From a virus (taxonomy: Duplodnaviria > Heunggongvirae > Uroviricota > Caudoviricetes), in the IMG/VR virus record IMGVR_UViG_2695420589_000003: DNA of 19,056 nucleotides; one strand, 5' to 3'. The first letter of the stretch is position 1; each line of letters starts with the position of its first letter. Shown here one piece after another: positions 3,466-17,391 of the stretch. Both the position numbers and the translations under genes were made by a program. The notes beneath the pieces were generated by a model. That model was given only the letters and a program-made list of their open reading frames with translations. It ran no database searches and was not told the origin of the DNA.

Positions 3466-3742
3466 GGTTGTTGTCCTCGTTGTTCAGTCGTTGCAGCCTG
3501 CGCTGTTCCAGTAATTCAATGGCCCGCTTATCGGCGTTACAGGTTTCCAGTGCGTCCATGAGGCTGTCGCTCCATATCCCGATGTTTCCCCATGATGGCG
3601 TCACCGGAAACGGCGGGGGAAGTACGGGGGCGGTCAGCCCTTCCGGGATGAAACGGAACGACGGCGGCGGCGCGGACGCGTTCTGCGTGCTGGTGCAACC
3701 GCTCAGTAAAGCGAGCGTCAGGAACAGCGCGGGCACATGCAT
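3452..3742 (-). CDS. lysC: Outer-membrane spanin (o-spanin, LysC/Rz1-like lipoprotein)
   Basis: Track ORF 3452..3772; lipobox LLSGC after a hydrophobic stretch and a Pro-rich mature region (PPPSFRFIPEGLTAPVLPPPFP); starts inside lysB in another frame and runs past its stop. Start is either GTG 3772 or ATG 3742. Confidence 0.7.
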   Translation of the reverse strand: MHVPALFLTLALLSGCTSTQNASAPPPSFRFIPEGLTAPVLPPPFPVTPSWGNIGIWSDSLMDALETCNADKRAIELLEQRRLQRLNNEDNNHAEN

Positions 3743-10399: not shown

Positions 10400-11445
10400 T
10401 GAGCAGAAAAAATAAAAAAGTGCGCATGAGTTCACGCATTGATCTCGCTGATGCGCTCAGGAAAGAATCGTCGCTCAGTGCATTCACATTTGATGGTCCT
10501 TACCGCCTGACCGGGCATGACCTGCTGGACAATATGTACTGTGCTGATAACGGGCGGTGGTATGAAACCCCGGTGGACTGGTACGGTCTGGCAAGAGCTG
10601 CCCGGCAAACGTCCTGGCATCAGTCTGCGCTTTACTTTAAGCGCAATGTATTGCTCGGCTGCTATATTCCGCACCCGCTGCTTTCCCGGCAGGATTTCTC
10701 GGCGCTGGCGCTGGACTGGTTTGTGTTCGGTAACGCATTCCTTGAGCTTCGGAGCAATATGCTCGGCGAACCGCTTAAATTACGGCACGCCCTGGCGAAA
10801 TACATGCGACGCGGAAGCGATCTTGAATCATGGTGGTATGTGCAGGATGGCAAGGATGCGTTTCAGTTTCGTCCTGGCAAAGTGTGCCACCTGATGAATC
10901 CGGATATTAACCAGGAAATCTACGGCATGCCGGAATATCTTGGCGCATTACTCTCGGCCAGCCTTTCTCATTCGGCGGACATGTTCAGAAAACTGTACTA
11001 CGACAACGGATCCCACGCCGGGTGCATCATCTACATCGGTGCAGCGCAGGTAAACCGCGAAAGCATGGACTCCCTGAAAGAAACGCTACAGGGGGCACGT
11101 GGTGGTGGTGCGTTTAAAAACGTGCTCATTCATGCGCCCAACGGGGGCAAAGAGGGGGTGCAAATTTTGCCGTTCCAGCAGATCACCGCAAAGGATGAGT
11201 TCATGAATGTTAAGGCGGCATCCCGTGATGATGTGCTGGCTGCGCACCGCGTTCCGCCGCAACTGATGGGGGCGATGCCGGGCGAAAAAAGTGCGTTTGG
11301 TGATGTGGAGAAGGCCGCGCGGGTTTACGCAATTAACGAGCTGATGCCCGTCATGGAGGCCATGAAGCACATCAATGACTGGCTTGGCGAAGAGGTGATC
11401 CGCTTTAACCCTTACGCACTGTTAGACACCCAGCCCACATCCTGA
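10399..11445 (+). CDS. Q: Portal protein gpQ
   Basis: 348-aa ORF (P2 gpQ about 344 aa) starting MSRKNKKVRMSSR; GGAG RBS; last late gene before the presumed cos region, as in P2. Confidence 0.9.
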   Translation: MSRKNKKVRMSSRIDLADALRKESSLSAFTFDGPYRLTGHDLLDNMYCADNGRWYETPVDWYGLARAARQTSWHQSALYFKRNVLLGCYIPHPLLSRQDFSALALDWFVFGNAFLELRSNMLGEPLKLRHALAKYMRRGSDLESWWYVQDGKDAFQFRPGKVCHLMNPDINQEIYGMPEYLGALLSASLSHSADMFRKLYYDNGSHAGCIIYIGAAQVNRESMDSLKETLQGARGGGAFKNVLIHAPNGGKEGVQILPFQQITAKDEFMNVKAASRDDVLAAHRVPPQLMGAMPGEKSAFGDVEKAARVYAINELMPVMEAMKHINDWLGEEVIRFNPYALLDTQPTS

Positions 11446-11471
11446 CGCGCTTCGCTTGTCTGCTGCTTCGC

Positions 11472-11496
11472 CGGGGCATAAAAAATTTATGCCCCG
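11472..11496 (+). terminator. Perfect 11-bp stem / 3-nt loop hairpin (CGGGGCATAAA-AAA-TTTATGCCCCG) 27 nt after the Q stop
   Basis: Read directly; no U-tract follows on either strand, so not a canonical intrinsic terminator. Confidence 0.35.
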
Positions 11497-11782
11497 ACTC
11501 TCCAGCTCCTGTATCAGTCAGATAATTTCACGACGCTTTCCTGCTGATTGCCATCATCGACAGTCAGACTCTTACGCAATCCCACCTCGTTGACTGCATA
11601 TTCTCGCCGTCTCAGTGCGATTTTGACGGCCTTACCTTTCACCCCATCAAATCAAAAGCCCTCACGTCTTTTTCACGCTCAGCGTGAGAAATACAGCCAT
11701 TCTGTTGTATCTCTGCGACATCGTTCAGGGAATGCTATTTACCCCCTGAAACGCGGGCTGTTCCCCCGTCACCTGCGCGCAG

Positions 11783-11826
11783 AAAAAACGCGTTTTTTTG
11801 TGCATGCACGGATCCTTGACGGATCC
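11783..11826. repeat. Cluster of palindromes: AAAAAACGCGTTTTTT (11783-11798), GTGCATGCAC (11800-11809), GGATCC-N5-GGATCC (11810-11826)
   Basis: Read directly from the sequence. Confidence 0.6.
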
Positions 11827-11870
11827 AGCCGCCACGCGGGCCGGAAGGGCAAAAAGTCGTTCAAAAAAAT

Positions 11871-11896
11871 TGTGCAAATTTGTGCACTATTGTGCA
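11871..11896. repeat. Three TGTGCA hexamers at exactly 10-bp spacing (11871, 11881, 11891); a fourth copy at 11799
   Basis: Read directly; helical phasing suggests a protein-binding array. Confidence 0.6.
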
Positions 11897-11936
11897 TTTA
11901 TAAAATCAACTAAAAAACACCTAGTGTGACTTACCT

Positions 11937-12122
11937 CTACCACTCGATCGGCACGTAGTCATTAAGTTCCGGAGACCAATTGCACTTTTCACATCTGTGT
12001 TTTCCATTCTGGCAGATACATAAACGATAACGGCCACAATGCGGGCACCCATTTTCACCATTATCATAATCACCGAGCGACCATTCCTGCATAAGCAGCT
12101 CTTCTTCATCATCATTTAGCAT
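11937..12122 (-). CDS. Small Cys-rich (zinc-ribbon-like) protein with an acidic N-terminus; island gene 5
   Basis: 61-aa ORF with ATG 12122, AGGGGGA RBS and a Cys cluster (C-x2-C-x5-C-x-C-x6-C-x2-C); last gene of the minus-strand island. Confidence 0.55.
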   Translation of the reverse strand: MLNDDEEELLMQEWSLGDYDNGENGCPHCGRYRLCICQNGKHRCEKCNWSPELNDYVPIEW

Positions 12123-12136
12123 TAATCCCCCTTGAG

Positions 12137-12376
12137 CTATTTACTCTTCTCGGCCCTCAAAATCATACGAGAACCATCATCCAGCTCCCAATTAATTTCA
12201 CCGCCTTCTGCCATGACTAGATGCCAAACGAGTTGAGCGGCCTCGTTGGTTACATCGCGACCGCGATCATTTCCTACGCGGCGTTTTGTTCCGTCTCCTA
12301 AGTCACGCATTTTTGCCAATACGATGGTTTTTGATAGCGGTGAAAAACCAAGCTGTAGTCGTGCTGAATTACTCAC
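12137..12376 (-). CDS. Hypothetical protein (79 aa from GTG, or 57 aa from the internal ATG); island gene 4
   Basis: ORF whose GTG start overlaps the stop of the upstream 174-aa ORF (GTGA); no recognisable motif. Confidence 0.4.
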   Translation of the reverse strand: MSNSARLQLGFSPLSKTIVLAKMRDLGDGTKRRVGNDRGRDVTNEAAQLVWHLVMAEGGEINWELDDGSRMILRAEKSK

Positions 12377-12897
12377 TGGCTGCCCCCTTTGTACTGTGTT
12401 AACTCTTCCTGCTCCTGCATCATGCGATTGACCTGAACGCGTGTGCGTCGAACGGCAAAATTAAATTGAAACATGAGCCGGAACATTTCTGATGCTTCCG
12501 TGTGAGCATCACGGATAGGTGACAGGCGGTACAGTTCTGCCTCCGTAGCTTGTTGAATCAATGACAGATCAAATTGAAGTGCGGGTCTGGTACATTTTGC
12601 ACATCTGGCAGCAAGCTCCGGTATTAGTCTCTTAACGAAGGTGTTTTGCACCGCTTTGTTGATTTGTGTCTGCATCCAAATCGCAAATTTCAGCGAACGC
12701 ATAAGTTTGATAGCCTCGGGCAGCGGCAGATAGATCATGCTGGTAGATTTGGGTGGTTGGTGAACCATCTTCACGGATACGCGATTTCGCAGCGTTCGGA
12801 AAATCGTGTTCCCAACAACAGCTTCTACGGATACAGGACAGGGAGCCAGACCAGCCCGCAGTGCTTCTTTCATTAGCATGTATTCGTATTTTTTCAT
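12373..12897 (-). CDS. Hypothetical basic protein (174 aa); island gene 3
   Basis: ATG 12897 with GAGGA RBS 6 nt upstream; no recognisable domain. Confidence 0.55.
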   Translation of the reverse strand: MKKYEYMLMKEALRAGLAPCPVSVEAVVGNTIFRTLRNRVSVKMVHQPPKSTSMIYLPLPEAIKLMRSLKFAIWMQTQINKAVQNTFVKRLIPELAARCAKCTRPALQFDLSLIQQATEAELYRLSPIRDAHTEASEMFRLMFQFNFAVRRTRVQVNRMMQEQEELTQYKGGSQ

Positions 12898-12957
12898 CGT
12901 GTTTTCCTCGTGCGGGGCGACAGTGCACCCCGATAAAATTAAAAGCCGTCAAATTCG

Positions 12958-13121
12958 TCATTCAGGAAATAATGCCCGGATATTCCCTGCTATCTGACTG
13001 GTTATCTGTGCGGTTGGTACTGGCTGTGGCACGGGGCGTTCTGTCCTGGTTTGTGTCACCGATAACGCCTCATCGTCAGCCCATGCAGCCAGTCGGTAAG
13101 CCTCTGCTGGATTCATTTTCA
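12958..13121 (-). CDS. C-terminal 53 codons of an ORF starting in mask 13122-13387; candidate ParR-like adaptor by position only
   Basis: Open minus-strand frame ending at stop 12958, immediately downstream of the ParM-like gene, which is where parR sits in parMRC loci. No motif verified. Confidence 0.3.
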
Positions 13122-13387
13122 NNNNNNNNNNNNNNNNNNNNNNNNNNNNNNNNNNNNNNNNNNNNNNNNNNNNNNNNNNNNNNNNNNNNNNNNNNNNNNN
13201 NNNNNNNNNNNNNNNNNNNNNNNNNNNNNNNNNNNNNNNNNNNNNNNNNNNNNNNNNNNNNNNNNNNNNNNNNNNNNNNNNNNNNNNNNNNNNNNNNNNN
13301 NNNNNNNNNNNNNNNNNNNNNNNNNNNNNNNNNNNNNNNNNNNNNNNNNNNNNNNNNNNNNNNNNNNNNNNNNNNNNNNNNNNNNNN

Positions 13388-14299
13388 CACCCCGTCCGCG
13401 ATGAAAGTCGCATTAACTCCGCAGGCTTCGCGGATAGCGGGTGCCACAATCTCCGCCCCTCCACCGACAACCATCACCCGCCCGTAACCCGAAAAACCCG
13501 CCAGCGCGCGGATCACGCGTTGTTTCAGTGTTTCTTCCTTTTCACGAATAACCGCCATCAGGCTGGCGTAATGCGCGTCATTGTGGATGTGCTGGCGCAG
13601 CCAGGCTTCATCATGGCGATGTTCGATAATGGTATTGGCGATGTGGTGACTGGTGCGCATACCGTTAGTGGCCATCACCGACAGTACGGCATCGGCCATC
13701 AGAGAAACGCCTACGTGTGGATCGCAAAACACCTGGCTGATACCTGCCAGTTGCCCCTGAACCTTTGCCACATCCAGCGTGGTTCCGCCCAAATCCACAA
13801 TCAGCAGGGATTCAAACGGACTCATGTCAGCCAGTGCCTTAAAGCCAGCCGGAATGGATTCAGGCATAACCCGCACGTTACGGATAGTGAATGCTTCGCC
13901 GTTCTGGTACTCCACCGGGCGCATAACGTTCGCTTTTTTGCGGTTGATGTTGGCCATGTCCGGCTGTGCGTTTGTGTCGAAATACTCGCTCAGTGGCAGG
14001 GTGACAACCACATCCACCTCCTGTGGCGTGATGCCTGATTTGACCAGCGCGTGATGAATGGCAATGACATTTACATCGCTGTACTGGTATTGCGTGTCGG
14101 TTGTCTGGACAAAGCGATCGCTGACCGGATCAAAACCATAGCGCACGCCATCAAGCATGTAGTTCGCGGGCTGCATGCCACCGAACGGCGCAGACCATTC
14201 CGACTTGAAGCTGTTCGGGCTGATGGCGTTGCGGCGTTCGCCGTTCTCAGTCCATGCCAGCTTGATGTTGGTGGAGCCGTCGTCGATACAAATTTTCAT
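13388..14299 (-). CDS. ParM/StbA-like actin-fold ATPase (304 codons visible; C-terminus masked)
   Basis: N-terminus MKICIDDGSTNIKLAW closely matches recalled R1 ParM; all three ASKHA nucleotide-binding motifs present: DDGSTNIK (14261-14284), LIVDLGGTTLD (about 13778-13795), VMVVGGGAE (13451-13477); AAGGA RBS before ATG 14299. Confidence 0.85.
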
Positions 14300-14330
14300 G
14301 TCGCTTTTCCTTATGTTGATTAATTAATCG

Positions 14331-14442
14331 TTTACGGGATTCTGAAATCCCGTTTTTGCCTGTTTTGTGCGCGCTTCATATATCGCTGCGCGTTTTTTGC
14401 TCATTTACGGGATTCGTGAGTCCCGTTTCTGTCTGTTTTTTG
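14331..14442. repeat. Two copies, 73 bp apart, of a ~36-bp element TTTACGGGATTC-(loop)-TCCCGTTT-T-rich; each forms a hairpin followed by a T-run on the plus strand
   Basis: Copy 1 at 14331-14366 (hairpin 14335-14352) in the A/ParM spacer; copy 2 at 14404-14442 inside the last codons of A; loop differences are compensatory. Confidence 0.6.
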
Positions 14443-16785
14443 TTTCCACTGGTCAGGCCACCCCGCAGCAGGTCTGCTTTGCGGCGGGCGCGTTCAGTGG
14501 TTTCACTGATTCTCTGTGCGTGCTCTGCGTCGCGGATGGCGCGCAGCATGTCAGAAAGCACGGTAACGGGTGTTTTCATGGTGTTCTGGTCCTGCTGAAG
14601 TGTGGATGCCAGGCGTGCGGCGGCTTCAGGGTCTGATGCCCCCAGCTGTGTCAGATAGCTGGCGACCGGGTTATGGCGGATCTCCGTGCTGCTTACGCCA
14701 TGATTACGGCTCAGGCGCTGCCAGAGCTGCGTGATTCGGCTGTCCGGGCGGGTATCCGGTTTGCGTACAATTTCAAATCCCTGCGGTGCAATGATGCTGC
14801 CGTCAACGTACAGACTGCCGCCCCGTAACAGGTGCTGCATCTGTTGTTCACCGATATGCAGGCCGAGAGATTCAGCAGACTCCCGCCATTCTTTAGCGAG
14901 TAATTCGTGGTTATCAGGCAAAGGCCGCTGCTGTTTGCGGCTCTGTGTCCAGCTCTGCATTTCATCACTGCTGTTTTTTGCCTGTTTGTCACGAAGCGAA
15001 CGCATCAGCGCCCGGCGTTCGTGCCGTTTCAGTGAGCGCATCCATTCATCCACATCAACGCCGTCAGGGAGCTGCGGCCACGGTGCTGGCCGTTCTTCCG
15101 GCTGTTCTGTCCCGTTGTTGTCCGTTTCCTGTACACGGGGACAGTTATTGCCACGAGTCCAAGGGGCGGCAGGGCCGCCCTGAAGGTCAAAACCATTTTC
15201 GCGGGCGCTGTCTTCCGCTTCCGGTTTGCGTCTTACCAGCTTCCAGTTATCCGGATGCGTGCACACACGGGAGGATTCCCCGATGAGTGGTGACCAGATC
15301 CCGTAAATCTGTACGCTCTGTTCGCCGTAATCGTTCAGCTCATCGGCGAGGTCGTAGGCGGTGCGAATCAGGTAGTCTTTGCGTGGAACAAGTACGCCGC
15401 CCTGTTTCTCTATGTAGGTGGCAAAACATCCGGCATCAGCGGCGGCAAGAACCGCATCCATTGCGTCATCCTTCAGCCGTTGCGGGCCTTCCGGGTTGCG
15501 TGCCATCTGGCTGGCAAGGCGGCGCAGTTCACGCCATACCTGGCGGGAGGGGATGCCAAAGAACTGGAACTGGCGGACCCGGTGAAGGCGCGCCCAGCCG
15601 ATGGCGCGTTCCACGCTCTCGGCCATTGATTTTCCGGTTTCGTGGTCAACGCGTGGCTTGCCCGTTTTCGGGTCGATGCCATCCACGGCGCGGCTGTCCA
15701 GGTTTTTCCCGATGTAGGTGGCGATGTAGCTGGTTGGCGTGCCTTTTGAGCCGTCTACATACTCCGCCTTAAAGCGCGGAGTTATGTCATCGCCCAGCTC
15801 GTGACGATCTTCCTGAATGGCAATATCGCGGGTGTGGGACACAATGGTGTCGATTTCTTCCGGATGAGCAAAGACCATCATATGCCAGTGCACGGTGCCG
15901 TCATGGTGAGGCTCCGCCGTGCGGATGCCATACCAGCGCAGGCCGTCGCGGTTCAGTTTTTTGCGGACCGTCGCAAAAAACGTGTTAACCAGGTAATCGC
16001 TGGAGTCGCGCATTGTGGCCCCGTTCCATTTGGGATTCGGATGACCGTTCTCCGTTGTGGCGTGGTATTTTGACGGGCAGGTGACAGTCAGAAACACCGC
16101 TTTGTCGCCACGGGCTTCGGCCAGAAGTTCCAGCCCCTTCATGGTGGCCATCATTTCTGCCTTACGGTGAACCGGGTTACTTACTCCCGCGTAATACACC
16201 GTCTCGAGATCAATCGTGAACCCGTCTTCATTTTCCAGCATGAAACTTTTCAGGAAATCGCGTGTTTTCTCGCGCTGTGCGCGAAACTCGCTTAACGCGT
16301 CCTGGCTCAGATAGGGCGATGTTTTTCTGGAAACCAGACAGGCGGCGCGAAGTTGTTCTTCTCTCCACTCGCAACGTAACAGCCACAGTTTGCGTTTCCA
16401 CCATTCCGCACAGGTCAGGCGAAGGATTGCGCCCGGCAGCAGTTCTGTGTCCGGTTCGTGCCTCCGGTCTTTGTCTGTTGTCAGTGCGTCATAATGCGGA
16501 GGCATGGCGTGTAAGTGTAACGCCATGCGGGCCAGCATCTGATACGCCTTCAGCGTTACATCCATGGTCAGCTCGCCATCAGTCGCGCCAAAACCATCGC
16601 AGAGTTTTTCGAAGGTGCTGCTGAACATCGCCGCCGTCATGGTGGCCAGCGTCTGTATCTGGTGTTTGTTGAGTTGCGGCAGGTAAAGCAAATCGTCCAG
16701 GCGTTCACGTCCGGCAAGGGAGCGATAACCCGGTGTCAGCCAGTGTCCGTCAGTGCGATCCAGACGTTCGAATATTTTGCGCAGG
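14376..16785 (-). CDS. A: Rolling-circle replication initiator gpA (HUH endonuclease); 5' end in mask 16786-17312
   Basis: Contains EPHHDGTVHWHMMVF (HUH motif) and YIATYIGKNLD (paired catalytic Tyr), matching recalled P2 gpA; about 803 codons visible. Confidence 0.9.
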
Positions 16786-17391
16786 NNNNNNNNNNNNNNN
16801 NNNNNNNNNNNNNNNNNNNNNNNNNNNNNNNNNNNNNNNNNNNNNNNNNNNNNNNNNNNNNNNNNNNNNNNNNNNNNNNNNNNNNNNNNNNNNNNNNNNN
16901 NNNNNNNNNNNNNNNNNNNNNNNNNNNNNNNNNNNNNNNNNNNNNNNNNNNNNNNNNNNNNNNNNNNNNNNNNNNNNNNNNNNNNNNNNNNNNNNNNNNN
17001 NNNNNNNNNNNNNNNNNNNNNNNNNNNNNNNNNNNNNNNNNNNNNNNNNNNNNNNNNNNNNNNNNNNNNNNNNNNNNNNNNNNNNNNNNNNNNNNNNNNN
17101 NNNNNNNNNNNNNNNNNNNNNNNNNNNNNNNNNNNNNNNNNNNNNNNNNNNNNNNNNNNNNNNNNNNNNNNNNNNNNNNNNNNNNNNNNNNNNNNNNNNN
17201 NNNNNNNNNNNNNNNNNNNNNNNNNNNNNNNNNNNNNNNNNNNNNNNNNNNNNNNNNNNNNNNNNNNNNNNNNNNNNNNNNNNNNNNNNNNNNNNNNNNN
17301 NNNNNNNNNNNNCGGGGATCCCCGTTCCTTCACGCCCCACTGCGTGGCGCGGTTGTTGCCAGTCCCTGATGTACTCTGCCGTCATAGTGAT

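Follow-up and report, generated by a model that had tools for sequence, protein, structure and literature searches.

On the minus strand of a 19,056-nucleotide stretch of prophage DNA (IMG/VR record IMGVR_UViG_2695420589_000003; the whole stretch is called the window below) two small genes, orf174 and orf79, are joined by a four-nucleotide overlap of stop and start codons. Our analysis indicates, with a probability which we put at about 75%, that this pair is a mosaic joint of two independently mobile accessory gene cassettes in the hotspot between gpA and the portal gene of a P88-like prophage. The two genes assort independently of each other, and what joins them is a short linker which recurs between unrelated genes in lambdoid and P2-like phages.

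The interval between replication gene A and portal gene Q (gpA–gpQ) is a variable and defence-associated hotspot of the P2-like phages [PMC9122126, PMC13586616]. P2 itself carries old and tin in this interval, defence systems (old, tin and retrons, for example) are overrepresented at the locus, and a partition system is found there in about a quarter of the E. coli P2-like prophages [PMC9122126, PMC13586616]. The window resembles P2 in the position of the locus, with both of our genes lying between gpA and the portal gene, and in its variable content. Furthermore, Table S5 of Rousset et al. (2022) [PMC9122126] lists in one row [quoted passage not shown] and this hypothetical protein is an orf174 homolog (~94% identical). 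The genes of the window differ from the P2 cargo in that they resemble neither old nor tin, match none of the PADLOC models and have no reported defence phenotype.

Short conserved boundary, or linker, sequences at the junctions of lambdoid modules are described in those passages of PMC3029335 which cite the modular theory of Susskind and Botstein and Clark et al. (2001). The linker described here is like them in being a short sequence conserved at gene borders between unrelated flanks, with coinciding similarity breakpoints and probable exchange in register. It differs in that it is also a translational unit, containing a Shine-Dalgarno sequence, a GTG and an overlapping TGA; in that it encodes terminal residues shared by its flanking proteins (...KGGNQ* and VS...); and in that it spans the ea regions of lambdoid phages and the unrelated P2-like hotspot. 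Its role in recombination we infer.

The exo-xis ("ea") genes of lambda and Stx phages (ea22, ea8.5, orf60a, orf61, orf63 and orf73 of those phages) form comparable arrays in which small early accessory genes overlap one another, and those which have been characterized affect host physiology or the choice between lysis and lysogeny [PMC7093339 and related papers]. DUF7446, the family of orf79, lies upstream of Ead/Ea22 in lambdoid and P22-like phages, while the usual partner of orf174 is also an Ead/Ea22-like gene. In contrast to the exo-xis genes, those of the window are found in a P2-family prophage beside parMR and not between exo and xis, and neither orf174 nor DUF7446 is homologous to the characterized exo-xis proteins or is known to affect lysis and lysogeny. 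Type II toxin-antitoxin operons, finally, likewise consist of two small adjacent genes with a four-nucleotide stop/start overlap on a mobile element. Our pair is unlike them: in the searches given below its two genes showed no conserved co-occurrence and no homology to toxins or antitoxins, and a promoter belonging to the pair was not detected.

The junction and the distribution of its two genes

The features in question are these:

12373–12897, minus strand: orf174, 174 amino acids, ATG start, from the ORF call
12137–12376, minus strand: orf79, 79 amino acids, GTG start, a member of the DUF7446 family
12372–12391, minus strand: the junction linker CAAAGGGGGCAGCCAGTGAG, with the Shine-Dalgarno sequence, the orf79 GTG and the orf174 TGA; it encodes ...KGGSQ* on one side and V-S on the other

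A preliminary description of this DNA had reported two overlapping ORFs of this size joined by GTGA. We confirm their coordinates, on the minus strand, and both are real genes. The overlap occupies 12373–12376, with the GTG of orf79 at 12376–12374 and the TGA of orf174 at 12375–12373, and reads ...CAG TGA on the minus strand. A Shine-Dalgarno sequence (AAGGGGG) stands 6 nt before the GTG, within the 3′ end of orf174; together with the overlap this is the structure expected of a translationally coupled pair. The GTG start proposed for orf79 is upheld by its homologs, which begin at the same residue (M/V-S-N-S/T-A-R/K-L-Q-L-G-F) and use GTG in 56 of 80 loci. The RNA at the junction has less structure than its shuffled counterparts (z +1.95), leaving the start site free of sequestration by structure, and no Rfam family matched anywhere in 11400–13100.

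Coupled or polycistronic expression, which had been suggested from the overlap, is plausible given this arrangement and its internal Shine-Dalgarno sequence. The overlap does not serve as the mark of a dedicated pair. Other co-directional pairs of long ORFs in the window have it too (e.g., 3537–4010/4007–5062 and 17899–18144/18141–18395), and in the arrays of related phages nearly all genes overlap their neighbors; because such overlaps are so common, this one is weak evidence of a functional pair.

The distribution of the two genes points to separate histories. Among 5,426 complete E. coli genomes orf174 was present in 29 and DUF7446 in 170, and no place covered both. The P88-like prophages of E. 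coli have orf174 (96–97% nucleotide identity) followed, with the same four-nucleotide overlap, by an Ead/Ea22-like gene and not by DUF7446. In samples from IMG/VR comprising 24 loci with orf174 and 80 with DUF7446, an Ead/Ea22-like gene, of three C-terminal types, came after orf174 in 17/24. DUF7446 and then orf61 followed in four loci, which form one lineage with orf174 98–100% identical. A 161-amino acid gene and then Ead followed in one (L140), and a 28-amino acid Ead remnant, a 197-amino acid ORF and a YafO-family toxin in the remaining two (L144 and L155). Whatever the next gene, its start overlapped the orf174 stop in 22 of these 24 loci. Diverged orf174 homologs (51–72% identity) are also followed by Ead/Ea22, one of them in a P2-like prophage devoid of parMR.

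DUF7446 in turn has 11 families of upstream genes in its 80 loci (Ead/Ea22 C-termini in 39, DUF2737 in 18 and orf174 in only four) and 11 families downstream; in 69/80 it overlaps the upstream stop by four nucleotides. It occurs also in phages of quite other types whose records contain no orf174, such as Escherichia phage Bas82, Salmonella phage STGO-35-1 and Enterobacter phage EcP1. In the P88-like prophage of E. coli FDAARGOS_943 the block of DUF7446 and orf61 is 99% identical to that of the window and stands behind an unrelated 75-amino acid gene (orf75). The two genes, that is, assort independently.

Two of the orf174 loci deserve separate mention. In L144 and L155, downstream of orf174 (from about position 3523), the Ead/Ea22 gene is cut to 28 codons, and the 197-amino acid ORF and the YafO toxin gene (Pfam E 2e-27) come after it; this is a real insertion of toxin-antitoxin type at the same spot, though not in the window. 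The 161-amino acid gene of L140 (2794–3280), between orf174 and Ead/Ea22, has no match in Pfam. It contains a DPPH motif, which may recall that of DNA methyltransferases.

A linker common to unrelated cassettes

When the window was aligned with lambdoid phages, P22-like phages and E. coli prophages, a junction consensus of ~20 nt, CAAAGGRGGCARCCAGTGAG, emerged. The junction linker is matched once in the window (0.01 matches expected). The consensus is found at the end of orf174, before DUF7446 in lambdoid phages, and on the 3′ side of DUF7446 at the Ead/Ea22 start. A scan of IMG/VR for exact matches to its 18-nt core, AAGGRGGCARCCAGTGAG, returned at least 120 contigs, and among the matches listed the core always sits at a stop/start overlap. 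Its flanks, again among the matches listed, belong to five upstream families ending in ...(R/H/Y)KGG(N/S)Q* and 10 downstream families starting V-S-, in many combinations. That orf174 is a remote homolog of the other cassettes with the ...KGGNQ end was considered and rejected, as hhalign of orf174 against every other flanking family gave a probability of <1%.

Since these matches were chosen by the motif itself, the DUF7446 loci, which were not, provide a second sample (80 loci, with 50 distinct upstream contexts). The 13 nt before the DUF7446 start differ from the linker at two positions or fewer in 32 of the 50 contexts; the other 18 depart from it at three or more of the 13 positions, keeping the Shine-Dalgarno sequence and the NTGA overlap. 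Conservation is strongest at the AAAGGAG Shine-Dalgarno sequence and the start codon and reaches past these into the spacer: GCAACCA is conserved between unrelated flanks, and so are codons 1 and 2 (GTG AGY). The linker is therefore a boundary sequence, that is, a short sequence conserved between unrelated flanking genes. It also occurs on both sides of inserted cassettes, namely DUF7446 in P22-like phages and the 161-amino acid gene in L140.

Similarity between the window and its relatives breaks within or at this linker, as it should at a mosaic junction. Compared with E. coli FDAARGOS_943 the window passes from unrelated to 99% identical sequence inside the linker; its similarity with E. 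coli PEC41/ES4 ends at 12369; and that with the DUF7446 genes of lambdoid phages runs from 12146 to 12388–12391.

The ...KGG(N/S)Q* ends of otherwise unrelated proteins correspond to AAA GGA GGC AAC CAG TGA read as codons; these proteins end alike because the Shine-Dalgarno sequence of the next gene is translated as part of their own reading frame. Ea22 proteins have a conserved "R/K-G-E" C-terminus, the significance of which was reported as unknown [PMC7093339]. This end is probably the footprint of the ribosome-binding site from which the following gene is translated.

The two proteins and the surrounding locus

Orf174 is under purifying selection (dN/dS 0.20–0.42 against homologs with dS up to 2.3), which shows it to be a real gene. 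Its product is basic, as had been noted from the sequence, with a pI of 10.0 and 26 K+R against 14 D+E. The statement that neither protein could be named holds for orf174, which is without a family: it has no match in Pfam, PHROGs, PADLOC or NCBIfam, none by tblastn against 50,697 phage records, and no relative in a scan of one genome per species (185,579 species). Only eight clusters (90% identity) exist among 5.8 billion proteins, and a search with the alignment profile against 1.84 billion representative proteins recovered only three representatives, all from the close family. Neither orf174 nor orf79 matches the PDB sequences. The AlphaFold2 model of orf174 is poor (pLDDT 50), showing a small sheet at the N-terminus and helices in the C-terminal half, and Foldseek found nothing significant for it in PDB and BFVD. 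The possibility that orf174 is a lipoprotein or has a signal peptide, raised by an "LAPC" motif, was rejected on reading its sequence, the N-terminus being charged and non-hydrophobic. The gene, which forms an orphan family, is an accessory gene of the P2-like gpA-portal hotspot and is confined to it, whether parMR is present there or not.

Orf79, on the other hand, does belong to a named, if uncharacterized, family, DUF7446 [PF24233; 61 bits with a gathering cut-off of 24.1, E 1e-16], its residues 7–77 aligning with positions 2–67 of the 70 in the profile. It also matches phrog_1578 [2e-32]; these two were its only matches in Pfam, PHROGs, PADLOC and NCBIfam. The protein and 47 homologs have 28 invariant columns in common, and there are 372 homologous clusters. 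DUF7446 is a tight family of Enterobacterales phages, a small accessory protein of many temperate phages and of several other phage genomes. Its AlphaFold2 model is of low confidence (pLDDT 58; beta-beta-beta-alpha-beta-beta), and the Foldseek comparison which had been proposed for both proteins gave, in PDB and BFVD, no significant match beyond the DUF7446 family itself. In the literature we found no mention of DUF7446, of phrog_1578 or of the accessions of the RefSeq proteins. The place of DUF7446 in lambdoid and P22-like phages is immediately before the Ead/Ea22 genes, with bet or erf on one side and xis on the other, and by context it belongs to the small accessory genes of the exo-xis/ea region. 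Plasmids among the complete E. coli genomes (e.g., NZ_AP018804.1, L132) carry DUF7446 as well, at 47 places, and some of these plasmids, of ~90 kb, resemble phage-plasmids. On plasmids it again forms part of chains of small genes with four-nucleotide overlaps (DUF4752, metallophosphoesterase, DUF968).

The window as a whole is, by its annotation and its similarity to P88-like phages, a P88-like prophage (Xuanwuvirus, family Peduoviridae, P2-like). It is 99.9–100% identical to a Shigella sonnei contig (L008), and is a prophage of the Shigella sonnei/E. coli type. Public contigs of these two species carry the exact orf174, orf79 and orf61 proteins in 820, 908 and 643 instances, respectively. The features around our pair are:

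14376–17333, minus strand: gpA replication endonuclease, the first gene in minus-strand order
13340–14299, minus strand: parM (Pfam StbA_N and ParM_N; annotation of P88 and E. coli prophages; the unmasked contig L008)
ending at 12958, minus strand: parR, partly masked by Ns together with parM (parM/parR span 12958–14299), identified on the same basis as parM
12898–12957, minus strand: leader of orf174, ~60 nt, with a GC hairpin (CGGGGTG...CGCCCCG) and a GAGGA Shine-Dalgarno sequence before the ATG
11937–12122, minus strand: orf61, 61 amino acids, acidic (pI 4.4), Cys-rich and zinc-ribbon-like (CxxC...CxC...CxxC)
11897–12368, minus strand: the lineage-specific block of DUF7446 and orf61, from blastn of the window against loci L001–L010
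11872–11887, minus strand: terminator-like hairpin and T run downstream of orf61, in backbone conserved with P88 and E. coli prophages
ending at 11445, convergent to the minus-strand genes: portal gene, which bounds the hotspot opposite gpA

The order on the minus strand is thus gpA, parM, parR, orf174, orf79, orf61 and the terminator-like hairpin, which is likely, judging from its sequence, to be the end of the operon. ParM and parR lie upstream on the same strand as orf174 and orf79 and are likely to belong to the same operon. The block of DUF7446 and orf61 stands in the place of the Ead/Ea22-like gene which follows orf174 in the P88-like prophages of E. coli, and the conserved backbone resumes just before the hairpin. 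Orf61 matches phrog_24897 [3e-46] and, weakly, a Zn-ribbon. It moves as one block with this DUF7446 allele, and its cluster has members in Klebsiella and on Salmonella contigs, of which there are more than 1,000. In E. coli FDAARGOS_943 orf61 is left without annotation by RefSeq.

The leader of orf174 is kept whether parR or a gene for a ClpX-type zinc finger lies upstream, and its fold is no more stable than those of shuffled sequences. No clear −35/−10 pair was seen in it, and a simple scan with the sigma-70 consensus found no site between parR and orf174, although a weak promoter could escape such a scan. In prophages with the zinc-finger gene upstream (loci L145, L147, L148 and L160) the 3′ arm of the leader hairpin contains a poly-C tract of 6–9 C which varies between contigs and may be prone to slippage.

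Several further observations concern the flanking DNA. A run of Ns at 13122–13387 hides the border of parM and parR; it measures 266 nt against 200 nt for the homologous interval in L008 and phage P88, a difference of 66 nt. An ORF of 407 amino acids on the minus strand (13076–14299), which could be read as a novel long ParM, was rejected as an artifact of this masking, and consists of parM and the start of parR. A 42-nt direct repeat (14328–14369 and 14401–14442; 81% identical, 73 nt apart) straddles the gpA 3′ end and the DNA which precedes parM. In each copy a T-rich run comes after a palindrome, ACGGGATTC..GAATCCCGT, and the copies could be ParR-binding (parC-like) sites or terminators. 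The interval from the portal gene to orf61 (11446–11936) is conserved backbone, 95.8–97.7% identical with P88 and E. coli prophages. The cos site of P2-like phages is located in this interval.

Probable origin of the joint and other explanations

If the pair is a mosaic joint, orf174 and orf79 would be cargo genes with no promoter of their own, carried at the end of the parMR/early transcript. One polycistronic mRNA is most likely, since the genes follow gpA, parM and parR on the same strand and are themselves followed by orf61 and the terminator-like hairpin. The linker would supply a strong Shine-Dalgarno sequence and a start codon overlapping the upstream stop, so that any cassette placed after it could be translated without a promoter of its own, by coupling or re-initiation. 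The low degree of structure in the junction RNA, compared with shuffled sequences, makes efficient translation of orf79 probable, and this translation may depend upon orf174 only in part. As the linker is common to many unrelated cassettes of the lambdoid ea/exo-xis regions and the P2-like hotspots, it would also serve as a short homology for exchange of cassettes in register. The order orf174, DUF7446, orf61 is then most simply accounted for by two crossovers, one within the linker, the other within the backbone common to the parents, between a prophage carrying orf174 and Ead/Ea22 and another carrying orf75, DUF7446 and orf61. The proteins themselves most likely act separately, as small accessory factors of the moron type. 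DUF7446 is probably, by analogy with other proteins of the exo-xis region, a small factor which binds a host or phage protein; orf174 is a basic protein restricted to P2-like hotspots, its helices being those of a low-confidence model.

Some points weigh against this account. The arrangement of orf174 and DUF7446 is abundant in one lineage, as the 820 and 908 contigs attest, and could reflect a functional interaction specific to that lineage. The strong and unstructured Shine-Dalgarno sequence could permit orf79 to initiate independently, in which case coupling need not be obligatory. Much of the recurrence of the linker comes from homologous tandem Ead/Ea22 genes, which make up 69/129 of the upstream and 103/129 of the downstream flanks. 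Operon structure and coupling were both deduced from the sequence, and the structural models of both proteins are of low confidence. Recombination at the linker was deduced from breakpoints, and illegitimate recombination with selection of the working joints gives similar patterns.

This last point can be put as an alternative in its own right: the shared junction may reflect convergent selection for a good ribosome-binding site and a stop/start overlap and have no role in recombination, with the joints themselves formed by illegitimate recombination. The prominence of the Shine-Dalgarno sequence and start codon in the conserved stretch is consistent with it, as are the 18 of 50 DUF7446 contexts which depart from the linker yet retain a Shine-Dalgarno sequence and the NTGA overlap, and most mosaic boundaries are without conserved sequences [PMC3029335]. 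Yet the GCAACCA spacer and GTG AGY, conserved between unrelated flanks, are not needed for translation alone; the linker is present on both sides of inserted cassettes; and three independent similarity breakpoints fall inside it. We consider the convergent origin unlikely.

A second alternative concerns function and is compatible with the cassette and linker architecture. One or both genes might be single-gene anti-phage factors (superinfection exclusion or defence) or counter-defence factors for which the neighbor is irrelevant. The enrichment of the gpA-gpQ locus in old, tin and retrons [PMC9122126, PMC13586616] speaks for this, as does the confinement of orf174 to the hotspot; the presence of DUF7446 in arrays of small accessory genes of many unrelated phages is what one would expect of a protein modulating host or defence. 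Against it, orf174, orf79 and orf61 gave no match to 5,027 PADLOC models at E values up to 1, no enzymatic or sensor domain was found in them and no experimental report in the literature, and many hotspot genes are not concerned with defence, partition systems occupying a quarter of the loci. A defence role for either gene is accordingly doubtful.

The remaining explanation, that of the preliminary description, in which a type II toxin-antitoxin or sensor and effector pair has its stoichiometry set by translational coupling, we regard as very improbable: the overlap with its internal Shine-Dalgarno sequence, the small size of both proteins, the reputation of the hotspot for defence and addiction systems, the YafO toxin after orf174 in two relatives and the abundance of the arrangement in one lineage are all in its favor, but the pair is found in 0/5,426 complete E. 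coli genomes, among which each gene is present separately, and in 4/24 and 4/80 of the sampled loci, all of one lineage; orf174 keeps company mostly with Ead/Ea22 even where diverged; DUF7446 follows 11 upstream families and inhabits other phage types, each gene being coupled alike to many partners through the shared linker; and toxin, antitoxin and defence models in Pfam, NCBIfam and PADLOC, together with PDB sequences, gave no match, nor did the simple sigma-70 scan detect a promoter-like site for the pair.

The mosaic joint favored here is an ordinary one, matching what is known of phage mosaicism at boundary sequences and of the P2 hotspot. It is of modest interest on three counts: the linker which crosses phage families, orf174 as an orphan, and the C-terminal peptides as by-products. 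A four-nucleotide stop/start overlap in a prophage hotspot is not by itself the sign of a two-gene system, and screens which pick toxin-antitoxin or defence candidates from gene pairs need a check of co-occurrence first. A bolder view, which we offer tentatively and think improbable as a whole, is that the linker is a "plug-and-play" socket between temperate phage families, through which lambdoid ea regions, phage-plasmids and P2-like gpA-gpQ hotspots would trade promoter-less genes in register and have them translated at once, orf174 being a hotspot-restricted orphan with a new activity such as the exclusion of competing phages. For the phages themselves, the locus provides a concrete example of a short linker, common to lambdoid and P2-like phages, where accessory genes would be exchanged, and a simple explanation for the conserved C-terminal peptides (...KGGNQ and the "R/K-G-E" of Ea22) on unrelated proteins.

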